64,000 nt of DNA from Escherichia phage vB_Eco_ZCEC15. The notes below the pieces were generated by a model, which searched no databases, was not told where the DNA came from, and was given only the letters and a program-made list of their open reading frames with translations. The stretch lies in the sequence record PQ871103.1. One strand, given 5' to 3'. A program made the translations under genes and the position numbers. Every line of letters begins with the position of its first letter. Position 1 is the first letter of the stretch. This document shows positions 13,438 to 55,095 of the stretch, in pieces.

Positions 13438-13451
13438 TCTTTGACGATTTA

Positions 13452-13469
13452 AGGGACCTTCGGGTCCCT
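13452..13469 (+). terminator. Terminator hairpin AGGGACCTTCGGGTCCCT plus T-run after gene 23
   Basis: Perfect GC stem, followed by TTAGTTGTTTTT. Confidence 0.7.
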
Positions 13470-13485
13470 TTAGTTGTTTTTATGG

Positions 13486-13493
13486 TATAAATA
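13486..13493 (+). promoter_or_regulatory. Late promoter box TATAAATA upstream of gene 24
   Basis: Exact motif 28 nt upstream of ATG. Confidence 0.6.
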
Positions 13494-13520
13494 AATCATA
13501 TAAACCAAAAGGAAAGCGCA

Positions 13521-29279: not shown

Positions 29280-29333
29280 TCCTCATGTTATGTCAGTAAG
29301 ATTATTATAACACAACACGAGGGACTTGTAAAC
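29280..29333 (-). promoter_or_regulatory. Early promoter-leader cassette, copy 1 (-35 GTTTAC, 17-nt spacer, -10 TATAAT, leader to GAGGA)
   Basis: - strand GTTTACAAGTCCCTCGTGTTGTGTTATAATAATCTTACTGACATAACATGAGGA; identical 54-mer at 44848..44901. Confidence 0.7.
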
Positions 29334-31390
29334 TACATCTTGAACTTTTTAGACATTTCGTTGATGTTAACCAAAGAAGCCAAGATTTGAGAAACTTCGT
29401 TTTCCTCTTCTTTTGATTCTTCTACAAGGAATTGATTAAACCCAGCCATTGGACGAACTTCGCCAGTTTCCATTAGATGATCGCCATCATATACCGATTC
29501 TTCTAATTGTTCAGAAGGAGGAACGATTGTGCCTTCGATTAGATACTTGTTATAAGCAGTTTCTTTCATCATGTACGTGCTTACTTTATTAATCTTCAAC
29601 AAAATTCCACGCGGTAGAATAACTTCAGCTTCTGATGGAAATCCTGATAAATGACCTGGAACGATAACTTTGATTCGCTCAGCCCCTTTAATTACCATAC
29701 CTACGCTAGCTTCAGCATCTTCATTAGCATATGCAGAATGACTACCCATATGCATTAAATCTTCAGCATCAACAGAACCTTCTCCTTCACCAGAAAATAC
29801 TGCGCCGGAATCATCTAGAGCCATATAGTTTTTACCATGCTCACCGAAGATATTTGGTTTAAGCGACGTGGATACGAAGTTCTTGAAATAGAACATTTTA
29901 TTTTCAATATTATGACGTAAAGTTTTAAAAGTAACTTCTTGCCCACGATAAAGCGTAGTTCCTGGAGGAAGAACTGATCCTTTGGCGAATGCAGAATCCA
30001 GCGTCTCGATGTGTTTAATAGCTCGTTCAATGTATTCTTCACGGGTAGAATCTGGTTTACCCAAGAGGAACGAGTTCATTTCAACATATGAATCTGCACA
30101 ATAATCTTCAATTACATCAGACTCAGCCTGAGTCAGTCCTTTTGGAGTTACTTCGGTGCTTGCATATTCATACGCCTGAGCAGCAGATGCATTAATCAAT
30201 TTATAAATGCCATTCATGACAAATCGAATAATAGCTACCTTTTCGTCTGGTGTGGCTTTAGAACCTTTAACTAAATCATTGATAATTTTCTTAATAACAT
30301 CAAAGCTATTAGAAATATTAATGTCAGCGAGATCGCTCAAAATTTTATCGGTTTTATAATCAAAAAATTCTTTATTCTTTAAATATTCTTGAGAACCTTG
30401 ATGTGTTATATCGCTCTGCAGTCTGATAGACGGATCACGTAAACGTGCATGGGCCAATGCAATATCATTTCGGAAGCTTTCTAGTTCATAATCGTTAGAT
30501 TTAAAACGAGAAGCACTTCTCATACCACCGATAGCTCCTTTGCTGAAGTTTGAACCAATCTGAATAACGCCAGAGTTCATTGATCCTTCTGCTTTATATA
30601 CCGGAACTTTAGATTCAAACTCTTGATATTTCTTGGCAGCGAAGCTATCACCCTGTAGCGAAGCATCGACAGTAGAATATTGAGCTTGCGCTGCTAATCG
30701 ACGACTAATTTTAGTTTTCTGAATAACAGCTTGATCCGTGCGCTTATCATTTTCTAAAGCAACAGAAGCAGCAACAGCAACAGCTTTAGGAACAGCATTA
30801 CCTGTTTTAACATCTACATAAACATCACCAACCTTTGATTCAACTTTTGTGAATAACTCAGTTGAAATAGGAGGTACACCTGGAATGTCTTCTAAATTGG
30901 CATTTTTACGGTAAACCATAATATATGCATACTTTTTATCGTAATCCCAGATTTCCTTTAAAAGAACATATCGACCTGCTCCTTTAGTACGTACTAAACG
31001 GTCAGCAATAACTTGCATCTGACGAGCAGCGCCATTTGTTTTACTTTTTAGTACGCGGAATAGGCATGCGTCAATTTTATACTGTTTCATTGTTTGAAGA
31101 GCAGTATCAAAAACCGCATTAATGACACCAATTGGATTTCCACCCAAGTTTTTAAGTTTAACTAATGATAGTTTCTCATTAACACCTATCATTACGATAT
31201 GCATCATTTTATCGCCTGGCTTAACGTTTTTATTTGTATCACCGCCAGAGGTGTATGTACAAAATCTAAATCCAGGAAGCACGCTTTCTTCACCGGCTTG
31301 AATAGCAAAAATTTGAGGTATTTTATGCTTAGGATTTAAGTTAACAACCGGCGCCGAAGCGCCGTCAAATAATTCTGTAATAAGTTCCAT
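29333..31390 (-). CDS. Alt-like ADP-ribosyltransferase paralogue
   Basis: 685 aa; R-S-E ART motif (YRGQ, FVSTS, EAEVILPRG); N-terminus near-identical to upstream paralogue. Confidence 0.8.
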   Translation of the reverse strand: MELITELFDGASAPVVNLNPKHKIPQIFAIQAGEESVLPGFRFCTYTSGGDTNKNVKPGDKMMHIVMIGVNEKLSLVKLKNLGGNPIGVINAVFDTALQTMKQYKIDACLFRVLKSKTNGAARQMQVIADRLVRTKGAGRYVLLKEIWDYDKKYAYIMVYRKNANLEDIPGVPPISTELFTKVESKVGDVYVDVKTGNAVPKAVAVAASVALENDKRTDQAVIQKTKISRRLAAQAQYSTVDASLQGDSFAAKKYQEFESKVPVYKAEGSMNSGVIQIGSNFSKGAIGGMRSASRFKSNDYELESFRNDIALAHARLRDPSIRLQSDITHQGSQEYLKNKEFFDYKTDKILSDLADINISNSFDVIKKIINDLVKGSKATPDEKVAIIRFVMNGIYKLINASAAQAYEYASTEVTPKGLTQAESDVIEDYCADSYVEMNSFLLGKPDSTREEYIERAIKHIETLDSAFAKGSVLPPGTTLYRGQEVTFKTLRHNIENKMFYFKNFVSTSLKPNIFGEHGKNYMALDDSGAVFSGEGEGSVDAEDLMHMGSHSAYANEDAEASVGMVIKGAERIKVIVPGHLSGFPSEAEVILPRGILLKINKVSTYMMKETAYNKYLIEGTIVPPSEQLEESVYDGDHLMETGEVRPMAGFNQFLVEESKEEENEVSQILASLVNINEMSKKFKM

Positions 31391-31393
31391 GAT

Positions 31394-33490
31394 TTATCCT
31401 TGAACGAACTTGTAAGGCATGTTTGCAATATCTATGCAAGATGCAATAATTCCAAGAGATGATTCTACTTTTTGTTTAACATTTGATGAAACAAATGTTG
31501 CAAAGTCAACTCTGTCTTCTATTTCAATATCATCTGTCATTGCAACTACTTCACCAGTTTCCATTAGACTGTCACCGTCATAAATTACCGATTCGGTGAG
31601 TTCTTCTGTAGTCATAACTTCAGCTTGAATGAGTTTTGTATTATTAGATGTTGTTCCGTCATTATTAGAAGCATCAGTTATTTTATTAACTTTGACCATC
31701 AATCCGCGCGGCAGAATAACTTCAGCTTCTGTTGCTATTCCGAGACTTCCTGGATATACAACATTAACTTTATGAGCTCCATCAATTGCCCATCCTATTT
31801 GAACTTTAACGTATTCAGGATTTTCTTTATACGCTCTTATTTCATTTGGATTAATAGTTATTCCTTCTTCATTTTTATCAACTGTTAATTCATTACGAGC
31901 TTCTGGTTCTAAAAGACCAATACCAGCATGCGTAATTCCAAAACGTCCAAAAATGATAGGAGTTAAAGAAGTAGATACAAAATTTCTGAAATAGAACACT
32001 TTATTTTTAACTAGTGCTTCGTATATAGGAGCAGTCATGCTTTGAGCACGATAAACTGTAATGCCTTCTGGTATACGGTCACCATTTTCAAAGGCTGAAT
32101 CTAAATTATTTATCGCAGATTCAATTTCTTTTTCACTCATTACCTCATATCGTTCTGGATTGTAGCGACCTAAAAGAAGATTATTGATGTCAGTATATCC
32201 TGAACCACAATACTCTCTAATGCCGCGCTTTTGTGATGGAGTATATTTAGAACCATCACGAGCAATAGTAATATCAATCATTGGACCTGCACCAATTCCA
32301 GAAAAACTATAAATCATTCTTTTGAGGAATTTAGTTTTTGCTGCGTTCCAGGAATTTTTAGTTATTTCTTCCCAGACTTCATCTGTCTGTCCTTTACGAG
32401 TTTTATTATGTTTATCAAGCCAGTTATCTTTATATTCTTCAAATAATTGATTAACAACTGTTGCGTATTTCTCTAAACATTTTATTGAAGTAGTTGGTTC
32501 ATTTTTAATCGCATTAAGAATTACATCTTTAATTTTTTCAGAAACTTCATTAACCTCACTTTTTGAAAAGAATTTATAGTCATAATGAAGTTCATCTGCA
32601 GTTCCTTCAGCAATAATTTTTGCTGCCTTAGTTTTAGAAGCTAATGAATTAATTCCAAGCTTCATTTCTTCTGCTTCGGGAATTAAAGGAGCTGTAGCAG
32701 GTTTATTGAAATTAGCTGCGGTAGATTCATACTTCTGGAATAATTCACTTTCAAATCTAGAAGATTCCAATGATTGACTTTGTGCAATTGCTCTACGGGA
32801 AATTTTAACTTTAACGATTACAGCTTGGTCAGAACGTTTATCATTTTCTAGTGCAATAGATGCTGCAATTGCCTCATTTTTAGTTACTTGAGCTCCAGTA
32901 TCTTTATTGATATAAACATCACCGACTTTCGATTCAACTTTAGTAAAGAGCTCGGTACTAATTTCTGGAACTCCTGGAATGTCTTCTAATGATACATTTT
33001 TGCGATGTATAAGAATATATGCATACTTTTTATCATAATCCCAGAGTTCCTTAAGAAGGACGTATCTGCCACCTGAGCGACTACGGATAAGTCTATCAGC
33101 AATAACTTGAATTTGTCGAGCTTGACCAGCAGTTTTAGACTTAAGAATACGGAGCATACAGGCATCAATTTTATACTGACGCATTGTTTGCATTGCAACA
33201 GTAAAAACTGAATTGATATAATTAATTGGGCTTGGACCAAGACCTTTCAATTTAGCAATTGAACCTTTAGCAGTTAATGTAAAAGGAACAATATGCATCA
33301 TTTTATCGCCCATCTTTAAATCACGATTAGTATCACCTCCAGATGTATAGGTACATAAACGAAAGCCTGGTTGTTCAATTGCATCATCAACATGAACTGA
33401 AAAAATTTGTGGTATTTTCTTCTTTGGATTTAAGTTTGTAATCGGAAGAGTAGTATCTTCGTCAAATAATTCTGTAATGAGTTCCATCAT
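31394..33490 (-). CDS. alt: Alt ADP-ribosyltransferase (virion-packaged, modifies host RNA polymerase)
   Basis: 698 aa; R-S-E ART motif (YRAQ, FVSTS, EAEVILPRG); late promoter upstream. Confidence 0.8.
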   Translation of the reverse strand: MMELITELFDEDTTLPITNLNPKKKIPQIFSVHVDDAIEQPGFRLCTYTSGGDTNRDLKMGDKMMHIVPFTLTAKGSIAKLKGLGPSPINYINSVFTVAMQTMRQYKIDACMLRILKSKTAGQARQIQVIADRLIRSRSGGRYVLLKELWDYDKKYAYILIHRKNVSLEDIPGVPEISTELFTKVESKVGDVYINKDTGAQVTKNEAIAASIALENDKRSDQAVIVKVKISRRAIAQSQSLESSRFESELFQKYESTAANFNKPATAPLIPEAEEMKLGINSLASKTKAAKIIAEGTADELHYDYKFFSKSEVNEVSEKIKDVILNAIKNEPTTSIKCLEKYATVVNQLFEEYKDNWLDKHNKTRKGQTDEVWEEITKNSWNAAKTKFLKRMIYSFSGIGAGPMIDITIARDGSKYTPSQKRGIREYCGSGYTDINNLLLGRYNPERYEVMSEKEIESAINNLDSAFENGDRIPEGITVYRAQSMTAPIYEALVKNKVFYFRNFVSTSLTPIIFGRFGITHAGIGLLEPEARNELTVDKNEEGITINPNEIRAYKENPEYVKVQIGWAIDGAHKVNVVYPGSLGIATEAEVILPRGLMVKVNKITDASNNDGTTSNNTKLIQAEVMTTEELTESVIYDGDSLMETGEVVAMTDDIEIEDRVDFATFVSSNVKQKVESSLGIIASCIDIANMPYKFVQG

Positions 33491-40762: not shown

Positions 40763-40995
40763 AGTACGCCATACACCCTTTGTGCTTCAACTAATCCATC
40801 AAAATCCAATTTGAGATGTGTTATTTGGTCACCATCACCTGGATTCACAATTACTAATACTGAACGAGGAGTTTCGGTAATAACGCGAACCGATGTTTCT
40901 GGAAATCGTTCAGAAACCTTATTTACCAATTCCTGAGCAAATAGTTTAACTTTTTCTTGGAATTCTTTAACAGTAATTGGTTTTTCGCTTAGCAT
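40759..40995 (-). CDS. Hypothetical protein
   Basis: 78-aa ORF. Confidence 0.5.
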   Translation of the reverse strand: MLSEKPITVKEFQEKVKLFAQELVNKVSERFPETSVRVITETPRSVLVIVNPGDGDQITHLKLDFDGLVEAQRVYGVL

Positions 40996-41516
40996 GTTGA
41001 TCCTAGCTCCTTACTTTCAACGTTTTTAACTAATTTGACAGAAACTAATTCAGCATCTCGAGTAATCATTACCGGGCCTTCTTCATACTCTTCAAGATAT
41101 TCTAGAGCTTTCTTTTTAGCTTCTTCCTTCGTATCAGTTTGAGCATAGATATAAAACATGCAACCAGTAATACCTACTACTTTCCACTTAATTTCTTTAT
41201 CAGTTTTAATTTCAAATTTACTGACAGAATCATCTTTTTGAACTTCTTCGAAAAAAGAATATTCTAACATATAAGCAATTGAAAATAACGGGCTAACTTT
41301 ATAAGATTCGCCCATTACATCAACAGCTTTATACCAGCAGTCATCAATTTCGCGTTTAATGCTAATAACATTTTTCGCAGGATCTATTTTTACTTTAAAT
41401 GAATTTTCCCCAATAAACTGGGCAATTCGTTTATTAGCCCCGCAAGTTTCATTAAAAATATCTTTATACCCAGCTTTAAAGCGATAAACCTTATCTTCTT
41501 CAAACCATTCGCTCAT
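40989..41516 (-). CDS. Hypothetical protein
   Basis: 175-aa ORF; early promoter upstream. Confidence 0.55.
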   Translation of the reverse strand: MSEWFEEDKVYRFKAGYKDIFNETCGANKRIAQFIGENSFKVKIDPAKNVISIKREIDDCWYKAVDVMGESYKVSPLFSIAYMLEYSFFEEVQKDDSVSKFEIKTDKEIKWKVVGITGCMFYIYAQTDTKEEAKKKALEYLEEYEEGPVMITRDAELVSVKLVKNVESKELGSTC

Positions 41517-42057: not shown

Positions 42058-43472
<1,415 letters not shown>

Positions 43473-43996: not shown

Positions 43997-44346
43997 TTAG
44001 AAAGGTCCTGGATGTCTTCTGCGAACTTGTTGAAGGAGTTGTTGATTTGTTTTTCAACCAATCCTGGCTTATGAGCCACCACATCCGCCTTCTTTGCGTC
44101 TTTGCGCAGTTTTTCATTTTCACGCTCAATAGCAGCAATTGCCTCACGATTTTTATTATTCATCGCATCAATATAATTATACTGAATTCGCAAATTATTT
44201 AATGCTAAAGCGTTTTCATTGGCCGTTTTTGTAATTTCTACAACAGACGTTTCTAATCTTTCAATTTTATTTTTTAAAATTAAAGAAGTTCCGCCCAATG
44301 CAATTACAATTAATAGCAAACCTGTTGTCGTATTACTTAATTGCAT
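43993..44346 (-). CDS. Putative membrane-anchored coiled-coil protein
   Basis: 117 aa; hydrophobic segment LLLIVIALGGTSLIL then charged helical region. Confidence 0.55.
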   Translation of the reverse strand: MQLSNTTTGLLLIVIALGGTSLILKNKIERLETSVVEITKTANENALALNNLRIQYNYIDAMNNKNREAIAAIERENEKLRKDAKKADVVAHKPGLVEKQINNSFNKFAEDIQDLSK

Positions 44347-44840
44347 AAAGTTTTAATAACCTCTACAATATCGTCTTGAGAAAGACCGTTAATTAAAATA
44401 TGATGTTCAGCCGGAGATTTAGAAATTTTAAAGCATGCCTCAACATCTTCTGCCATATCTGATGCACTACGATTTGGATTACTAATTCCAAGACGATGTT
44501 TTCCCGTTAAAGGATTAACGATGATATAGCATTTACAGTTGTTAATATGAACATTAGGTTGAGTCTGATTAATGAACACATCACAATCATATTTCGCAAG
44601 CTGATTTTCTAAAAAGACTTTCATCTCCTCAACCGCATCAGGAAGCATATCACGGGCTTGCTCAAGACGACGATTTCGATATTCTTTAATGGTCGTTTTC
44701 CGCTTGACTTGCTTAGCTAAATCTTTCTTAAGATCGGTGATATATCCAACTCGACGATTTCCTTTAAATACAGAAATCCCATCTGTAGTATCACCGTATG
44801 CTTCAACGACCATCTCAGTAGTAATAAGCTGCAAATCCAT
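44337..44840 (-). CDS. alc: Alc-like protein (host transcription shut-off), assignment by size and position
   Basis: 167 aa; between pseT-distal ORFs and rnlA; early promoter immediately upstream. Confidence 0.6.
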   Translation of the reverse strand: MDLQLITTEMVVEAYGDTTDGISVFKGNRRVGYITDLKKDLAKQVKRKTTIKEYRNRRLEQARDMLPDAVEEMKVFLENQLAKYDCDVFINQTQPNVHINNCKCYIIVNPLTGKHRLGISNPNRSASDMAEDVEACFKISKSPAEHHILINGLSQDDIVEVIKTLCN

Positions 44841-44847
44841 TATAAAG

Positions 44848-44901
44848 TCCTCATGTTATGTCAGTAAGATTATTATAACACAACACGAGGGACTTGTAAA
44901 C
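44848..44901 (-). promoter_or_regulatory. Early promoter-leader cassette, copy 2 (identical to 29280..29333)
   Basis: Exact 54-nt identity; starts 1 nt after rnlA stop, ends at GAGGA 7 nt before the alc-like ATG. Confidence 0.7.
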
Positions 44902-44904
44902 AGC

Positions 44905-46492
<1,588 letters not shown>

Positions 46493-46500
46493 AATAAAAT

Positions 46501-46514
46501 GGGCCTTGCGGCCC
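46501..46514 (-). terminator. Hairpin GGGCCGCAAGGCCC plus T-rich tract after nrdB
   Basis: GC stem-loop 6 nt after nrdB stop. Confidence 0.6.
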
Positions 46515-46519
46515 ACTCC

Positions 46520-47698
46520 TTAAAAATATTTTTTAAAACTCATCATAACTTTATCATCAACATCATTATCAATCTGTGCTACAAGATAAGATGACAGTTC
46601 TACTTCTTGTGGCGCTGATTGAACATTATCAGAATTAAGATATTCACGAATCCAAGGATATGGATGTTTAACCGGAGCATCGGTAATTGGGCATGGAAGA
46701 CCACACTGTTTCATACGAGATACAGTTAAGTAATCAATAAAGCTCCACATGCTATTTGTATTTAATCCAGGAACATCGCCGTCTTTAAATAAATGAACTG
46801 CCCAGTCTTTTTCTTGGCGGTTAACTTCCATGAAAATATCAACTGCTTCTTGTTCACACTCTTGAGCAATTTTAACCCATTCATCACCATCAGTGCCAAG
46901 TTGAAGTTGACGAATAATATATTGGGTGCCTTTAAGGTGAAGTTGCTCATCACGTGCAATGAACTTCATAATCTTGGCATTACCTTCCATGATTTCCATG
47001 TTCTTATGGAAGTTAAAGGTACATGCGAAAGATACGTAAAAACGAATAGCTTCTAAGGCATTAATAACGTGCAAACAGAGGTAAAGAGATTTCATTAAAG
47101 CACGTTTAGCTTCGGCTTCTTGTTTAATAGCTCGGTTTAAACGAAAGACAGCATCAGGAGATTCTTTAGCTAGTTCTACAAATTCTTTAGCATTTTCCCA
47201 TTCACGGGTTTTAATCAGAACATCATCATAATAACGCCCAATGGATTCAGCACGTTTCATAATAGCTTCATCTAATACAATCTCATCAAATACCTTCGAT
47301 GGATCAGTATAAAGATTTCGCATGATATGAGTATATGAACGACTGTGAATAGTTTCACTAAAAGTCCATGTAGCAACCCATGTATCAAGACTTGGGTCTG
47401 AAATTAATGACATAAGTACAGCAGACGGTGCACGACCCTGAATGCTATCCAAAAGTGATTGATACTTCAAGTTGTTAGTAAAAATATTCTGCTGATACTG
47501 AGGAAGTTTATTAAATTGTGCAGCATCCATCATTAAGTTTACTTCTTCGGGACGCCAGAAAAATGATAATTGCTTTTCGGTTAAATCTTCAAAAACTTTA
47601 TGACGTTGAATATCATAACGCGCAATACCAAGACCTGAACCAAAAAACATAGGTTCTTTTAAAACATCAACTGGATTTGTATTAAAAACTGTGCTCAT
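46520..47698 (-). CDS. nrdB: Ribonucleotide reductase small subunit NrdB (uninterrupted, no intron)
   Basis: 392 aa continuous ORF with di-iron ligand motifs. Confidence 0.95.
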   Translation of the reverse strand: MSTVFNTNPVDVLKEPMFFGSGLGIARYDIQRHKVFEDLTEKQLSFFWRPEEVNLMMDAAQFNKLPQYQQNIFTNNLKYQSLLDSIQGRAPSAVLMSLISDPSLDTWVATWTFSETIHSRSYTHIMRNLYTDPSKVFDEIVLDEAIMKRAESIGRYYDDVLIKTREWENAKEFVELAKESPDAVFRLNRAIKQEAEAKRALMKSLYLCLHVINALEAIRFYVSFACTFNFHKNMEIMEGNAKIMKFIARDEQLHLKGTQYIIRQLQLGTDGDEWVKIAQECEQEAVDIFMEVNRQEKDWAVHLFKDGDVPGLNTNSMWSFIDYLTVSRMKQCGLPCPITDAPVKHPYPWIREYLNSDNVQSAPQEVELSSYLVAQIDNDVDDKVMMSFKKYF

Positions 47699-47749
47699 AA
47701 ATTTTCCACTTAGTTAATAGTTGGTGACTCGTCCGTGAGTCAAATTATA

Positions 47750-50014
47750 TCATAATTTACAGGATGAACAATCTTCAGCTTTTGGAGTTTCTATTTCATA
47801 ATCATCAGTACCAGAACCATCGCGGGTATTATGATAATAGAAATTTTTTCCGCCAAAATACCAAAAATACAAAAGGTCATCAATCATTATTGACATTGGA
47901 ACTTTTCCTTTTGGAAAAATCTGTGGGTCATAATATGTATTCGCTGAAGCTGATTGACATACCCATTTAAGCATAATAGCTACTTGCGTAAGATAAGGTT
48001 TATTACCTTTCTTAGCTAATTTCCACGTATAATCATAGAGGTCTATGTTATGCTCAATATTGGGCACGACTTGATTAAAGGAACCCTCTTTTGATTCTTT
48101 AACAGAGACTGGTCCACGTGGAGGCTCGATACCGTTTGTACTGTTAGAAACTTGGGAAGATGACTCACATGGCATAAGTGCTGATAATGTGCTATTACGG
48201 ATGCCAAAGAGCTTAAGGTCTTCCCGCAGCGACGACCAGTCACAAACGTATTTTGGAGCTGCGATTTGGTCAATCTTTTTATTGTACCAGTCGATAGGTA
48301 ATTCGCCTCGAGACCAACGAGTGTCTGAATAATATTCGCAAGGTCCTTTTTCTTTGGCGAGCTTAATGGATGCTTTAATGAGTCCATACTGTAATCTCTC
48401 AAATAGTTCATGTGTTAAATCGTTAGCATCTTCATAAGAAGCAAAATTACTTGCCAGCCAAGCTGCATAGTTAGTAACACCTACGCCAAGGTTTCGACGT
48501 TTTTTAGCTTTTTCTGCTTCAGGAACTGGATATCCTTGGTAATCCAAAAGATTATCAAGAGCACGAACTTGGACTTCTGCCAATTCATTAATTTTATCTT
48601 GGTCTTGCCAATCGAAGTTATCTAACACAAATGCAGATAACGTACACAATCCAATTTCAGCATCAGGACTATTCACATCATTTGTTGGAATAGCAATTTC
48701 ACAACACAAGTTGCTCTGACGAATAGGTGCCTTTTCACGAATAAACGGAGTATAGTTATTCGTATTATCAATGAACTGTACATAAATCCTTGCTGTTCCT
48801 GAGCGTTCAGTCATGAGCAATTCAAACAGTTCACGGGCTTTAATACGCTTTTTACGAATATTAGGGTCTTTTTCTGCAGCTTCGTATAATTCACGGAAAC
48901 GGTCTTGGTCTTTAAAATAAGAATAGTAAAGTTCGCCACCCATTTCATGCGGACTGAACAAAGTAATGTAATCATTCTTTCCAAATCGTTCCATCATCAA
49001 ATCATTCAGCTGGACGCCATAATCCATATGACGGATACGGTTTTCTTCTACACCTTTGTTATTTTTCAAAACGAGAAGATTTTCAACTTCCAAATGCCAA
49101 ATAGGATAATAAGCAGTAGCAGCGCCGCCACGAATTCCACCTTGTGAGCATGATTTAACAGCAGTTTGAAAATGTTTCCAAAAAGGAATAACACCAGTAT
49201 GGCGTACTTCACCCATGCCAATCTTAGAACCTTCGGCACGAATCATACCAACGTTAATACCAATTCCAGCGCGTTTGGAGATATATTCAACAATTGAAGC
49301 AGAAGCCTTGTTGATAGACTTTAATGAATCGCCTGCCTCAATAACAACGCATGAACTGAACTGTCGAGTGGGAGTACGACAACCAGCCATAATAGGAGTT
49401 GGCAATGAAATCTGTCGAGTAGATACTGCTTCATAAAAACGAATAACATGTTTTAATCTATCAACAGGTTCATCTTGATGCAATGCCATTCCAATAGTCA
49501 TAAATGCAAACTGTGGAGTTTCATAAATTTGACCAGTGGTTTTATCTTTAACTAGATATTTTTCTTTTAATTGCATCGCCCCGGAATAAGTAAATTCCAT
49601 ATCCCGTTCATGCTTAATTTTTGATTCTAAAAATGTAATTTCTTCTGCTGAATATTTTGACAACAATTCAGGGTCGTATTTACCTTCATTTACACAGTAA
49701 GAAATATGGTCAATAAATGAACGTGGTTCATACTGTCCATAAACATGCTTACGAAGAGCGAACATTAAACAGCGTGCAGCTACATATTGGTAATCAGGCT
49801 CTTCAACTGAAATAGAATTTGCAGCAGCCTTAATGACAATAGTCTGAATGTCATCAGTTGTCATTCCATCACGGAGATAAGATTTAATATTTTCATATAA
49901 TTCATAAGGATCTACTGATGTTCCCTCAGCTGCCCAAGATAAAACTTTAATAATTTTTTGTGGGTCAAAGCTCTGAGAAACACCACTACTTTTGATAACA
50001 TTAATTAATTGCAT
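47750..50014 (-). CDS. nrdA: Ribonucleotide reductase large subunit NrdA
   Basis: 754 aa; active-site NLCCEI segment and C-terminal CxxC. Confidence 0.95.
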   Translation of the reverse strand: MQLINVIKSSGVSQSFDPQKIIKVLSWAAEGTSVDPYELYENIKSYLRDGMTTDDIQTIVIKAAANSISVEEPDYQYVAARCLMFALRKHVYGQYEPRSFIDHISYCVNEGKYDPELLSKYSAEEITFLESKIKHERDMEFTYSGAMQLKEKYLVKDKTTGQIYETPQFAFMTIGMALHQDEPVDRLKHVIRFYEAVSTRQISLPTPIMAGCRTPTRQFSSCVVIEAGDSLKSINKASASIVEYISKRAGIGINVGMIRAEGSKIGMGEVRHTGVIPFWKHFQTAVKSCSQGGIRGGAATAYYPIWHLEVENLLVLKNNKGVEENRIRHMDYGVQLNDLMMERFGKNDYITLFSPHEMGGELYYSYFKDQDRFRELYEAAEKDPNIRKKRIKARELFELLMTERSGTARIYVQFIDNTNNYTPFIREKAPIRQSNLCCEIAIPTNDVNSPDAEIGLCTLSAFVLDNFDWQDQDKINELAEVQVRALDNLLDYQGYPVPEAEKAKKRRNLGVGVTNYAAWLASNFASYEDANDLTHELFERLQYGLIKASIKLAKEKGPCEYYSDTRWSRGELPIDWYNKKIDQIAAPKYVCDWSSLREDLKLFGIRNSTLSALMPCESSSQVSNSTNGIEPPRGPVSVKESKEGSFNQVVPNIEHNIDLYDYTWKLAKKGNKPYLTQVAIMLKWVCQSASANTYYDPQIFPKGKVPMSIMIDDLLYFWYFGGKNFYYHNTRDGSGTDDYEIETPKAEDCSSCKL

Positions 50015-50331
50015 AAGTCCTCAACTTGAAAATCGTCTTTAAACAATCGGTTAACTATATGAGCTATTATATCACCATGACACGGCTTTGGTTTACATGT
50101 GCATCCTAGCCTCATTCCACGTAAAGGCTCTAAATGTGCTTTAGTTATTTCTCCGGATTTAATTCGACGTATAAAATCTTTTTTGAATAATTCAATGGCA
50201 GCCTCCCGGCTGCCAGCATCTTTACCGACGTAATTTCCCCAAAATGTACCACGGTGAATATTAACATCAAAGTCGGATTTATATTTATTCACTACCCGAC
50301 ATAGACGGCCCGCGCGGTGATAATTCGGCAT
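50005..50331 (-). CDS. Hypothetical protein (nrdA.1-like)
   Basis: 108-aa ORF. Confidence 0.5.
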
Positions 50332-50560
50332 ATTGTTTTTCCGTTAAAACAGTAATATCGTAGTAACAGTCAGAAGAAGTTTTAACTGTGGAAATTTTAT
50401 TATCAAAATACTCACGAGTCATTTTATGAGTATAATATTTTTTGCTATAAATGATAATAGGCTGATTTGGTCCTGGAACTTCTAACTCGCTTGGGTTAGG
50501 AAGTGTAAAAAGAACTACACCAGAAGTATCTTTAAATCGTAAAATCATATATCCTCTCAA
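50285..50560 (-). CDS. Hypothetical protein (nrdA.2-like)
   Basis: 91-aa ORF, overlaps previous by 47 nt. Confidence 0.45.
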
Positions 50561-50571
50561 TTAAATTAAAA

Positions 50572-50883
50572 TTATACCGCCATCTTTCCTTTAATTGGCG
50601 GGTGAGATACATAGTTGTTAAGAACGAAATCTTTAGGTCTAAGTTTAAGAACATATTTTAATTGTTCTTTAGTAGAAAGATATCGGAATTTATAAGGTAG
50701 ACCACTTATTACCAACTCACAAAGCTCTTTAGGTTCACGCCTCAAAATTTCTTTACATTGTTCTACGTGATTCATATAGATATGAGTATTACCACCAGAA
50801 AATATCAAATCTCCTGGAATAAGATTACACATCTTAGCTACAATATGAACTAACGTAGCATATGATGCAATATTAAATGGAAG
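50572..50883 (-). CDS. td: Thymidylate synthase, exon 2 (103 codons)
   Basis: Begins LPFNIASYATL directly after intron 3' end ...CATAATG; continues exon 1. Confidence 0.9.
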   Translation of the reverse strand, partial: LPFNIASYATLVHIVAKMCNLIPGDLIFSGGNTHIYMNHVEQCKEILRREPKELCELVISGLPYKFRYLSTKEQLKYVLKLRPKDFVLNNYVSHPPIKGKMAV

Positions 50884-51899
50884 CATTATGTTCAGATAAG
50901 GTCGTTAATCTTACCCCGGAATTATATCCAGCTGCATGTCACCATGCAGATCAGACTATATCTCCAACTTGTTAAAGCAAGTTGTCTATCGTTTCGAGTC
51001 ACTTGACCCTACTCCCCAAAGGGATAGTCGTTAGGCATTTATGTAGAACCAATTCCATTTATCAGATTTTACACGATAAGTAACTAATCCAGACGAAATT
51101 TTAAAATGTCTAGCTGCATCTGCTGCACAATCAAAAATAACCCCATCACATGAAATCTTTTTAATATTACTAGGCTTTTTACCTTTCATCTTTTCTGATA
51201 TTTTAGATTTAGTTATGTCTGAATGCTTATGATTAAAGAATGAATTATTTTCACCTGAACGATTTCTGCATTTACTACAAGTATAAGCAGAAGTTTGTAT
51301 GCGAACACCGCACTTACAAAACTTATGGGTTTCTGGATTCCAACGCCCGTTTTTACTTCCGGGTTTACTGTAAAGAGCTTTCCGACCATCAGGTCCAAGT
51401 TTAAGCATCTTAGCTTTAACAGTTTCAGAACGTTTCTTAATAATTTCTTCTTTTAATGGATGCGTAGAACATGTATCACCAAACGTTGCATCAGCAATAT
51501 TGTATCCATTAATTTTAGAATTAAGCTCTTTAATCCAAAAATTTTCTCGTTCAATAATCAAATCTTTCTCATATGGAATTTCTTCCAAAATAGAACATTC
51601 AAACACATTACCATGTTTGTTAAAAGACCTCTGAAGCTTTATAGAAGAATGGCATCCTTTTTCTAAATCTTTAAAATGCCTCTTCCATCTCTTTTCAAAA
51701 TCTTTAGCACTTCCTACATATACTTTATTGTTTAAAGTATTTTTAATCTGATAAATTCCGCTTTTCATAAATACCTCTTTAAATATAGAAGTATTTATTA
51801 AAGGGCAGTCCTACAATTTAGCACGGGATTGTCTACTAGAGAGGTTCCCCGTTTAGATAGATTACAAGTATAAGTCACCTTATACTCAGGCCTCAATTA
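50884..51899 (-). ncRNA. Group I self-splicing intron of td (1016 nt) containing the I-TevI ORF
   Basis: 5' end TAATTGAGGCCTGAGTATAAGGTGACTTATACTTG... follows exon 1 ...CTTGGGT; 3' end ...CATAATG; interrupts TS between FLG and LPFN. Confidence 0.9.
51031..51768 (-). CDS. I-TevI: Intron-encoded GIY-YIG homing endonuclease I-TevI
   Basis: 245 aa; GIYQIKN...KVYVGSA GIY-YIG domain, Zn finger CKCG...CSKC, C-terminal DNA-binding region. Confidence 0.95.
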   Translation of the reverse strand: MKSGIYQIKNTLNNKVYVGSAKDFEKRWKRHFKDLEKGCHSSIKLQRSFNKHGNVFECSILEEIPYEKDLIIERENFWIKELNSKINGYNIADATFGDTCSTHPLKEEIIKKRSETVKAKMLKLGPDGRKALYSKPGSKNGRWNPETHKFCKCGVRIQTSAYTCSKCRNRSGENNSFFNHKHSDITKSKISEKMKGKKPSNIKKISCDGVIFDCAADAARHFKISSGLVTYRVKSDKWNWFYINA

Positions 51900-52448
51900 A
51901 CCCAAGAAAACATCTACTGATCGTTGATACCACTGCAAATCCAAATAGCCATTACGCACATTAAACTGATAGAACATATGACAAGGCGGTAATGCCATAT
52001 ATTTAAGTTCAGCTGGATTCCATGCAGAAACAATTTGACGCCTATCATTTGGCAGTTTTTTAATACGATCAATAACTTCTATAATTTGGTCTACACCGCC
52101 AAAATCGCGCCATTGTTTTCCATAAATTGGACCAAGTTCACCGCTATGGTATCCTAAATCTTTTGCTTGATTTTCGTAATTTTCATCCCAGACTGTTTTG
52201 CCTTGAATTAATGAATCATGTTGAATTAATCGCAAATCATTGACATTTGTGCTTCCCGATAAAAACCATATTAGCTCAGCAATGCAAGCTTTCCAGGCGA
52301 GCTTCTTAGTTGTTACGGCAGGAAAACCTTTAGTTAAATCCCAGCGTAATTTAGTACCGAACAAAGCAATTGTTCCTGTGCCTGTTCGGTCATCGGTTTC
52401 ATAGCCATTTTCAAAAATGTCTTTAATTAAATCTTGGTATTGTTTCAT
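51900..52448 (-). CDS. td: Thymidylate synthase, exon 1 (183 codons)
   Basis: Catalytic Cys in LPPCHMFYQF; ORF stops at TAA formed by first intron nucleotides. Confidence 0.9.
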
Positions 52449-52492
52449 TTAGTACCTTATATAAATTATAATACATTTTATGAAGCTAATAA

Positions 52493-53692
<1,200 letters not shown>

Positions 53693-53700
53693 ATTATCTC

Positions 53701-54036
53701 CTAATATAAAGGATCGGGAACATATCCACTGGCTTTAATCATTTTGATTAACGTTAGCAGTCCTTTATTAACTGCTTGTGAGATTTCATTAAAAACTTCA
53801 TCACTAAAAAGTTCTAACACTCCCTTCTGAACTTTTAATTTACAACCAACAATTTCATCATCGCCTATAGTAAATTCGTTTCCGCCAATTCCACCGAAAA
53901 ACTTAATTACACCAGTTAACTGTGTTCCACGAGAATATGGGTCGTGTGATAAAGTAATATGAGTCACCCCAGGTACAGTTTTAAATTGGCAGCGAATGTT
54001 TACTTGGGAAATTCCAGTTACATGAATGTCAGACAT
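53701..54036 (-). CDS. Hypothetical protein (frd.2-like)
   Basis: 111-aa ORF. Confidence 0.5.
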   Translation of the reverse strand: MSDIHVTGISQVNIRCQFKTVPGVTHITLSHDPYSRGTQLTGVIKFFGGIGGNEFTIGDDEIVGCKLKVQKGVLELFSDEVFNEISQAVNKGLLTLIKMIKASGYVPDPLY

Positions 54037-54046
54037 AATATTTTCC

Positions 54047-54289
54047 TCAAACAGACTTTTTCACAATTTTCCAATCAGCTTTAAACTGATCAACGTCAGA
54101 ATGGTAAATCCAGAATCCTGCGCTTTCTCCATCCTCATAAAGAGGGCATCCATCACATTCATCTTCCCATCCCATATCACGCAAAAGACGTTCAGCTTTT
54201 TCAACAAGTTCAGAATCTTTACCGATGATATTAAAATACCATTTACCTCTAACTTCTGAATCTTTAATGCTCTGACGTTGTAATCTCAT
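54047..54289 (-). CDS. Hypothetical protein (frd.3-like)
   Basis: 80-aa ORF. Confidence 0.5.
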   Translation of the reverse strand: MRLQRQSIKDSEVRGKWYFNIIGKDSELVEKAERLLRDMGWEDECDGCPLYEDGESAGFWIYHSDVDQFKADWKIVKKSV

Positions 54290-54398
54290 TTTATTCTCCT
54301 TAGCAAGCTTTAATCAAAAGGTATAAGCAAACTAACATAACTGCTGCCATAATATAAGGTGCGAACATTTTCTTTTCTCCATTAGTTTTGATAGGGTA

Positions 54399-54428
54399 AT
54401 AGTATCACACTACTACCCTTCTGTAAAC
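54399..54428 (-). promoter_or_regulatory. Putative early promoter (GTTTAC-N18-TACTAT) with -10 inside inverted repeat
   Basis: - strand GTTTACagaagggtagtagtgtgaTACTAT. Confidence 0.4.
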
Positions 54429-54823
54429 TACTTTTTGAAAGTTTTTCGCAAAAGTTCAATGATTTCGTCTACATTGTTTTCATCAACAATGCAGTGAATT
54501 TTTGTTACGCCAGAAACTGGGGTCTTATTAATGAAATCTATGGGTTGAAATGATTCTGGAGATACTTCAACAAAGTATTTGAATTCGTCTTCATATATTT
54601 CAAAAAATGAACCCGGTTTGCCGGCAGCATAAAATTTACTGCCGTCTTGCATAGTAACTCCTGTTACGAATGATACGTTGTCATCATCAACAACCATATC
54701 ATTGACAGTAAAACTAGGACCATGAATCTCAATCAAAGATACCATATCAGCATTTTGTGGGCATTCATCAGCAAAAGTAGCTTTGCATATAGGATTAATG
54801 ATATAAGTTTTTCCGATTTTCAT
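54428..54823 (-). CDS. Hypothetical protein
   Basis: 131-aa ORF with AGAGAAAATAA RBS region. Confidence 0.5.
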   Translation of the reverse strand: MKIGKTYIINPICKATFADECPQNADMVSLIEIHGPSFTVNDMVVDDDNVSFVTGVTMQDGSKFYAAGKPGSFFEIYEDEFKYFVEVSPESFQPIDFINKTPVSGVTKIHCIVDENNVDEIIELLRKTFKK

Positions 54824-54844
54824 TTATTTTCTCTCATTTTAATA

Positions 54845-54860
54845 GGGGCTTGATAGCCCC
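54845..54860 (-). terminator. Hairpin GGGGCTATCAAGCCCC
   Basis: GC stem-loop between gene 32 downstream region and next ORF. Confidence 0.55.
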
Positions 54861-54867
54861 TTGATAA

Positions 54868-55095
54868 TTACTGCTCAATAAATCCTGTGTAAAATTCTAC
54901 ATCTTCATCATCCATACCGTCACAGTATTCATTAACCATAAACTGTTTAAGACGATTTAAAGGACCTTCAATAACAACTGAAACATTGCAATTAGGATCA
55001 TTTAGTGCGCTTATGATATTAAGTTCAGGATAACGATTACGAATATTTTGAAGAAATTATTCGTAATCAATAACATCAATATCAACTTTAGCCAT
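54868..55095 (-). pseudogene. Reading frame interrupted by in-frame TAA: 12-codon ORF (MAKVDIDVIDYE) then 62 further open codons; possible disrupted gene or leader peptide plus hairpin
   Basis: AAAGAGGAAAACAAT-ATG start; TAA at 55057..55059 lies inside an 11-bp perfect inverted repeat. Confidence 0.35.
55035..55068. repeat. Perfect 11-bp inverted repeat GATTACGAATA / TATTCGTAATC with 12-nt loop
   Basis: Read directly from sequence. Confidence 0.8.

Follow-up and report, generated by a model that had tools for sequence, protein, structure and literature searches.

Which of the homing-element sites in the td-nrdA-nrdB region of phage T4 are occupied in Escherichia phage vB_Eco_ZCEC15 (PQ871103.1), and what the state of these sites says about the phage, was analysed in a 64,000-nucleotide (nt) stretch of its DNA (hereafter, the window). 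An earlier reading of the same DNA (the original prediction) had proposed that the thymidylate synthase gene td carries a 1016-nt group I intron with the I-TevI endonuclease gene, that nrdB is uninterrupted, and that nrdA and nrdB are separated by a spacer of only 51 bp, leaving empty homing targets in both places. Our analysis indicates that the segment is very probably an ordinary Tequatrovirus td-nrdA-nrdB region, made up of a T2-type nrd region free of homing elements and a mobile td intron. Judging from its sequence, the window is a mosaic Tequatrovirus distinct from T4. The combination of an occupied td with a vacant nrdB and spacer is common, long known and already annotated in relatives; variable occupancy by introns and mobE among the T-even phages is on record in papers of 1987-2009, that by introns reportedly in 1987 and 1989, going by the titles cited.

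The td intron was exactly 1016 nt long, with TAATTGAGGCCTGAG at its 5' end and ...CTGAACATAATG at its 3' end, and its boundaries were those of the T4 intron. Exon 1 terminated in ...TTTTCTTGGGT and exon 2 began with CTTCCATTTAATATTGC; the junctions quoted in the original prediction (exon 1 ending in ...CTTGGGT, an intron running from TAATTGAGGCC to ...CATAATG, and exon 2 starting with CTTCCATTTAAT) were all present. The joined exons encoded a thymidylate synthase of 286 amino acids (aa) with a single change with respect to T4 (T32S). The intron differed from that of T4 (NC_000866.4) at 3 positions (~99.7% identity), and several phages isolated independently carried it with 100% identity; the flanking exons were overall ~97% identical to T4 (97.1% in the case of exon 1). 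The 245-aa I-TevI protein showed 100% amino acid identity to T4 I-TevI (NP_049849), and its three Pfam domains, GIY-YIG (PF01541), I-TevI_ZnF (PF22635) and I-TevI_DNA-bd (PF20987), all exceeded the cut-offs. The hallmarks of group I introns were also found: the 5' exon ended in U, the intron ended in G (...ATAATG), and, by inspection, the UUGGGU at the end of exon 1 can pair with the guide GCCUGA at intron nt 9-14 to form P1. The ~99.7% identity to the experimentally characterised T4 intron supports the putative membership of the group I class. The element would correspond to the classical T4 intron, predicted to self-splice from the td pre-mRNA to give the 286-aa enzyme, and I-TevI would be expected to cut the intron-less td of co-infecting relatives, the repair of which would copy the intron in.

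With respect to the T4 intron and its endonuclease (T4p237/T4p238), the insertion site, intron ends, length class and I-TevI protein were identical, but the exons differed at position -22 of exon 1 and at positions +3, +6 and +18 of exon 2. Close to the junction these flanks were T2-like: exon 1 carried the T2 base at -22, and the first 26 nt of exon 2, starting with CTTCCATTTAATATTGCATC, were the same as in the intronless T2 allele. The last nucleotides of exon 1 were TTCTTGGGT, the type of T4 and of Yersinia phage PST, versus TTTCTTGGT in T2, and this T4/PST type covered the last 6 nt. An intron nearly identical among phages but surrounded by T2-like exons fits a recent horizontal acquisition, in which the intron would have homed into a td allele of the T2 type, with co-conversion limited to a very short tract. 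The same pattern could also result from selection for a splice-competent P1; by inspection, the UUGGGU ending pairs with GCCUGA better than the T2 ending would.

Several side observations concerned the td intron in other records. The intron annotated in NC_000866.4 is 1017 nt long, with an extra T near position 92, versus 1016 nt in the window and in PST; the 1016-nt query also spanned 1016 bases in other T4 records. Some relatives carried intron derivatives devoid of the I-TevI open reading frame (ORF), in which 24-45% of the intron was covered, in two pieces, and phages TuIa and JM17 harboured a variant intron ~90% identical.

The second gene in question, nrdB, was a single ORF of 392 codons (46520-47698; Pfam Ribonuc_red_sm), as had been predicted, and its length was equal to that of the T2 and PST genes. 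Its frame ran unbroken through ...TTTCGCAT/GTACCTTTAAC (here and below, the slash marks an intron boundary or the vacant insertion point), with no insertion between ...TTTGCGT and GTACCTTT. In the T4 reference (NC_000866), by contrast, nrdB is annotated as a two-piece join with an I-TevIII remnant inside, and mobE and nrdB.1 are located between nrdA and nrdB, in agreement with the T4 arrangement given in the original prediction. Once aligned to the window, T4 was longer by 600 bases at 47022/47025 and had 700 more where the window has the spacer, exactly at the nrdB intron site and at the mobE locus, and was 96-97% identical over most of this region. The 600 bases corresponded to the 598-nt nrdB intron (...TTTGCGT/AAAATGCG...CATACG/GTACC). 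The T4 mobE ATG overlaps the nrdA stop codon and the nrdB.1 stop codon overlaps the nrdB ATG, so the ancestral spacer is wholly gone in T4. In the window, the nrdA stop codon (TGA, 47750-47752) and the nrdB ATG (47696-47698) delimited a spacer of 51 bp (47699-47749), too short for an ORF; there was no mobE-type ORF overlapping the nrdA stop codon, and the 700-bp block of T4 had no counterpart.

The closest resemblance to this nrd arrangement was found in T2 and PST. T2 (PV958097) shared the intronless 392-codon nrdB, the 51-bp spacer with its hairpin, the absence of mobE, the region nicked by MobE and the AAG at codon 42 of nrdB; it differed in its intronless td, in 3 positions of the spacer and in a patch of ~120 nt of nrdB (43-57% identity). 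PST (KF208315 / NC_027404) matched the window gene for gene (denA, nrdB of 1179 nt, 51-bp spacer, nrdA, nrdA.1, nrdA.2, td-B, I-TevI, td-A, an extra ORF and frd), was already annotated so, and had an identical spacer; it differed in overall identity (~96% over 7 kb) and in the 5' part of nrdB, where codon 42 was AAA. The divergent nrdB patch (47099-47219; nt ~480-600, aa ~170-200) was hypervariable in a gene otherwise conserved, with 43-57% nucleotide identity to both T2 and PST; T4 had a third version, 4 codons shorter, and the patch had the MobE nick site on one side and the point of intron insertion on the other.

The window carried the recipient-type sites (nick region and insertion site) of the T4 mobE/I-TevIII trans-homing system, but not nrdB.1, mobE, the nrdB intron or I-TevIII. 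T4 has both the nrdB intron and mobE, T2 has neither, and T2 receives both from T4; the MobE-dependent nicks in T2 nrdB were mapped at nt 122-126 (PMC2790892). In the window, nrdB nt 97-128 were identical to T2, codon 42 was AAG, and the block coding for FFWRPEE followed, making nrdB a well-grounded predicted homing target of MobE. In a mixed infection with T4 or a T4-like donor, mobE and the nrdB intron would be expected to pass to this phage, as they do to T2. PST was found to lack mobE and yet to have AAA, not AAG, at codon 42, so the 2009 generalisation that all phages without mobE have AAG fails in the larger data set. The vacant intron insertion site of the window, ...TACGTATCTTTCGCAT/GTACC, differed from the spliced (intron-deleted) T4 homing site at positions -3, -6 and -14, all of them synonymous.

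At the nrdB site and in the spacer, the vacant state was the prevalent one among phages. The nrdA-spacer-nrdB junction was contiguous in 407 of 543 matching phage records (827 of 1066 at lower stringency, in several genera), and the nrdB insertion site was intron-free in 609 of 738. A full td intron was present in 196 of 289 matching records, 193 of them at 99% identity or more, and the td exon junction was contiguous in 274 of 454. Going by these junction counts, roughly 40% of records have an occupied td, and the large majority have a vacant nrdB site and spacer. T4 has been described as the outlier among the T-even phages in its load of homing endonucleases (PMC2988022). With the empty state in the majority and T4 the outlier, empty sites say that a phage is not T4 and little more; the original prediction was right in considering the phage a T-even relative distinct from T4, as the 96-97% identity indicates, but not in using the empty sites to mark it out. 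The closest records over 7 kb or 24 kb were ~95-97.5% identical and none was identical over 24 kb, where the best matches reached ~95-96%; ZCEC14 was 100% identical across short stretches only. At least 12 further phages matched the 7-kb query collinearly, as one piece of ~7000 bp. As a side observation, nrdA was split by an extra homing-endonuclease insertion in phages FL33 and FL34.

The spacer had been described as holding just an inverted repeat. Its length, the repeat (TGACTC, 47725-47730; loop, 47731-47736; GAGTCA, 47737-47742) and the absence of an ORF were all as stated, but the repeat is not mere filler: it forms part of a conserved, covarying hairpin. The spacer, identical in PST and different at 3 positions in T2, was compared in 8 sequences: Tequatrovirus (the window and T2), Dhakavirus, Mosigvirus, Gaprivervirus, Jiaodavirus, Winklervirus and an unclassified Klebsiella phage, counted as 7 Tevenvirinae genera, a small sample of related sequences. 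TATAAT was invariant in all 8 and was followed, 2-3 nt on, by a stem of 5-7 bp around a YGGA loop. The stems themselves varied (GACTC/GAGTC, ACTCA/TGAGT, GCTCA/TGAGC, GGCTC/GAGCC, GACCA/TGGTT and GGACA/TGTCC), with 90.9% of the stem cells in the alignment paired, versus 20-39% when the partner columns were slid. Three of the 6 stem pairs changed on both sides across genera, and the observed covariation score was reached by none of 500 shuffles; given the small sample and the kinship of the sequences, this covariation supports the hairpin without proving it. The variable stem and the conserved loop point to a hairpin rather than to a palindromic protein-binding site, and one G-U pair (in Jiaodavirus) fits the mRNA strand. 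The hairpin was absent from T4 and from the other phages bearing mobE.

That the repeat is a chance palindrome devoid of function could be argued from its frequency, as the window contained 252 perfect 6-bp inverted repeats with loops of 3-8 nt (~0.2 expected per 51 bp), so the repeat by itself is not significant, and from its 101-nt context, which folded no better than shuffled sequences (z = -1.2). Chance is nevertheless very unlikely as an explanation, since a repeat located at the same place in 8 sequences of 7 genera, with different stems, the same YGGA loop and covariation unmatched by the shuffles, is conserved across genera. Even less credible is an intrinsic terminator parting the transcription of nrdA from that of nrdB. 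The 6-bp stem is stable and the 51-nt spacer folded at -9.5 kcal/mol (z = -2.2), but the stem was followed by CCAACUAUUAAC, and the missing U-tract argues against termination; a scan of 47400-48100 for intrinsic terminators gave 0 sites, and the spacers of phages without mobE have been published as having no terminator (PMC2790892).

The spacer most likely comprises the nrdB middle-promoter region and an RNA stem-loop that would form in nrdA-nrdB read-through transcripts. The nrdB middle promoter has been placed at the nrdA 3' end or in the spacer (PMC2790892), and middle promoters of the T4 type combine a sigma-70 -10 element (TAtaaT), covering -12 to -7, with a MotA box (wwwTGCTTtA) 12+/-1 bp upstream (PMC2988021). 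The TATAAT of the spacer is probably the -10 element of this promoter. No convincing MotA box was seen by eye 12+/-1 bp upstream of TATAAT in the window; in Mosigvirus, Dhakavirus and Jiaodavirus, by inspection, the C-terminal codons of nrdA supplied AAGCTTTA 11-12 bp upstream of TATAAT. It is possible, though doubtful, that the hairpin, which precedes the nrdB ribosome-binding site, is a cis-acting RNA element of the ribonucleotide reductase operons of Tevenvirinae that has not been described before. It might, for instance, serve as a signal for processing or stabilisation and so, in read-through transcripts, set the ratio of nrdB to nrdA expression. Such an element would have gone unstudied because the model phage T4 no longer has it, mobE having taken the place of the spacer; in the literature searched for a nrdA-nrdB stem-loop, only the terminator internal to T4 mobE was found, and no description of the spacer hairpin.

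The empty sites might also be the product of secondary loss, if a lineage that once had mobE and the nrdB intron later lost both precisely, leaving the sites "cured". The accepted model of homing endonuclease genes involves repeated gain and loss, and nrdB, which has the hypervariable patch and is mosaic from the MobE nick to the intron site, shows a pattern that could reflect past conversion. Loss is nonetheless unlikely here. The mobE block of T4 replaces the entire spacer, yet the spacer of the window is that of PST; a deletion could not have restored it, and an empty allele would have had to recombine in. The TATAAT-hairpin module is common to the window and six other genera, the empty state is that of the large majority, and neither the spacer nor nrdB contained relics of mobE or of the intron. 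A spacer shared among genera, together with the predominance of empty sites, suggests that the empty state is ancestral and the T4 occupancy derived: in T4, mobE and nrdB.1 would have replaced the spacer and a group I intron would have entered nrdB. As for td, the intron copy might have decayed to the point of neither splicing nor homing, given that ORF-less and divergent derivatives exist in other phages. We consider this most improbable for a full-length copy with 3 differences from T4, an identical I-TevI protein and a 100% match to several independent phages; moreover, td would be inactivated without splicing.

No observation contradicted the interpretation of the segment as a T2-type nrd region with a mobile td intron, but its strength is limited by four points. 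The Rfam model of group I introns (RF00028, Intron_gpI) matched the 3' catalytic core of the td intron at 50932-51162 with an E-value of 5.4e-9, but with 42.5 bits versus a gathering score of 50. This core was detected only under an E-value threshold on a 2-kb slice, and no Rfam family matched 44000-55000 at gathering thresholds; a low score is to be expected with a looped-out ORF of 738 nt, which splits the model, but the match falls short of an unambiguous one. The splicing and nuclease activities attributed to the td intron are inferred from identity. As a target of I-TevIII, the nrdB site is uncertain, since the -14 difference described above falls on one of the two I-TevIII cleavage positions (-14 and -16; PMC1865063). 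The empty homing targets of the original prediction held as regards the vacancy of both sites and a MobE region equal to that of T2, and are less certain as regards I-TevIII. Finally, with a -10 element at -12 to -7, transcription would start seven nt after TATAAT, where the 5' arm of the hairpin has its last base; such a transcript would be unable to form the hairpin, which could then arise only in nrdA-nrdB read-through RNA. Two other Rfam matches in the same 2-kb slice, PhotoRC-II and snoR66, were attributed to chance (E-values of 0.5-0.9).

For annotation, td has to be described as a two-exon gene, and it would be wrong to mark nrdB or the spacer as deleted with respect to T4. Like most of its relatives, the phage harbours fewer homing elements than T4, and this reading of the locus is a textbook one with little at stake; the conserved hairpin of the spacer offers a minor lead, the one point perhaps deserving follow-up.

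The whole segment was encoded on the minus strand, with all the genes in the same orientation and in the order frd, 119-aa ORF, td exon 1, intron, td exon 2, nrdA.2, nrdA.1, nrdA, spacer, nrdB and denA (Table 1). The small ORFs nrdA.1 and nrdA.2 matched phrog_464 and phrog_2458.

Table 1. Features of the td-nrdA-nrdB segment in the order of the minus strand (columns: feature, position in the window, strand, remarks).
frd	52830-53447	-	gene order
119-aa ORF	52493-52852	-	phrog_1928, unknown function; between frd and td
td exon 1	51900-52448	-	549 nt; terminates in TTGGGT
td group I intron (predicted)	50884-51899	-	1016 nt
I-TevI ORF within the td intron	51031-51768	-	245 aa
td exon 2	50572-50883	-	312 nt counting the stop codon; begins with CTTCCATTTAAT
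nrdA.2	50285-50560	-	small ORF, collinear with T4
nrdA.1	50005-50331	-	small ORF, collinear with T4
nrdA	47750-50014	-	754 aa, uninterrupted; inside a 97%-identical block aligned to T4
nrdA-nrdB spacer	47699-47749	-	51 bp; without mobE, nrdB.1 or hef-type insertion
TATAAT, probable -10 of the nrdB middle promoter	47744-47749	-	directly after the nrdA stop codon
Spacer hairpin	47725-47742	-	stem TGACTC/GAGTCA, loop ACGGAC (mRNA strand)
nrdB	46520-47698	-	392 aa, uninterrupted
Equivalents of the MobE-dependent nick sites of T2 nrdB (nt 122-126)	47573-47577	-	codon 42 = AAG
Vacant nrdB intron insertion site	47022-47023	-	...TTTCGCAT/GTACCTTTAAC
denA	46082-46516	-	gene order

At the site of the 119-aa ORF, T2 and PST had homologous ORFs, and in T4 frd and td overlap instead. 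Other differences with respect to T4 were found elsewhere in the window. Between frd and frd.1, a segment of 569 bp missing from T4 held two small ORFs of 81 and 111 aa (phrog_3183 and phrog_3566; 53447-54036, minus strand). The free-standing GIY-YIG gene segD, located between genes 23 and 24 in T4, was absent (13449-13505; 57 bp versus 785 bp in T4), and the segE region was collinear with T4. Where T4 has alt and the fragments alt.-1 and alt.-2, the window carried two full-length alt-like ORFs in tandem (685 and 698 aa; 29333-33490, minus strand). Relative to T4, an ORF of 175 aa (phrog_3710; 40989-41516, minus strand) was inserted between cd.2 and cd.3, and a 313-bp insertion (43153-43465) was located between pseT and pseT.1.

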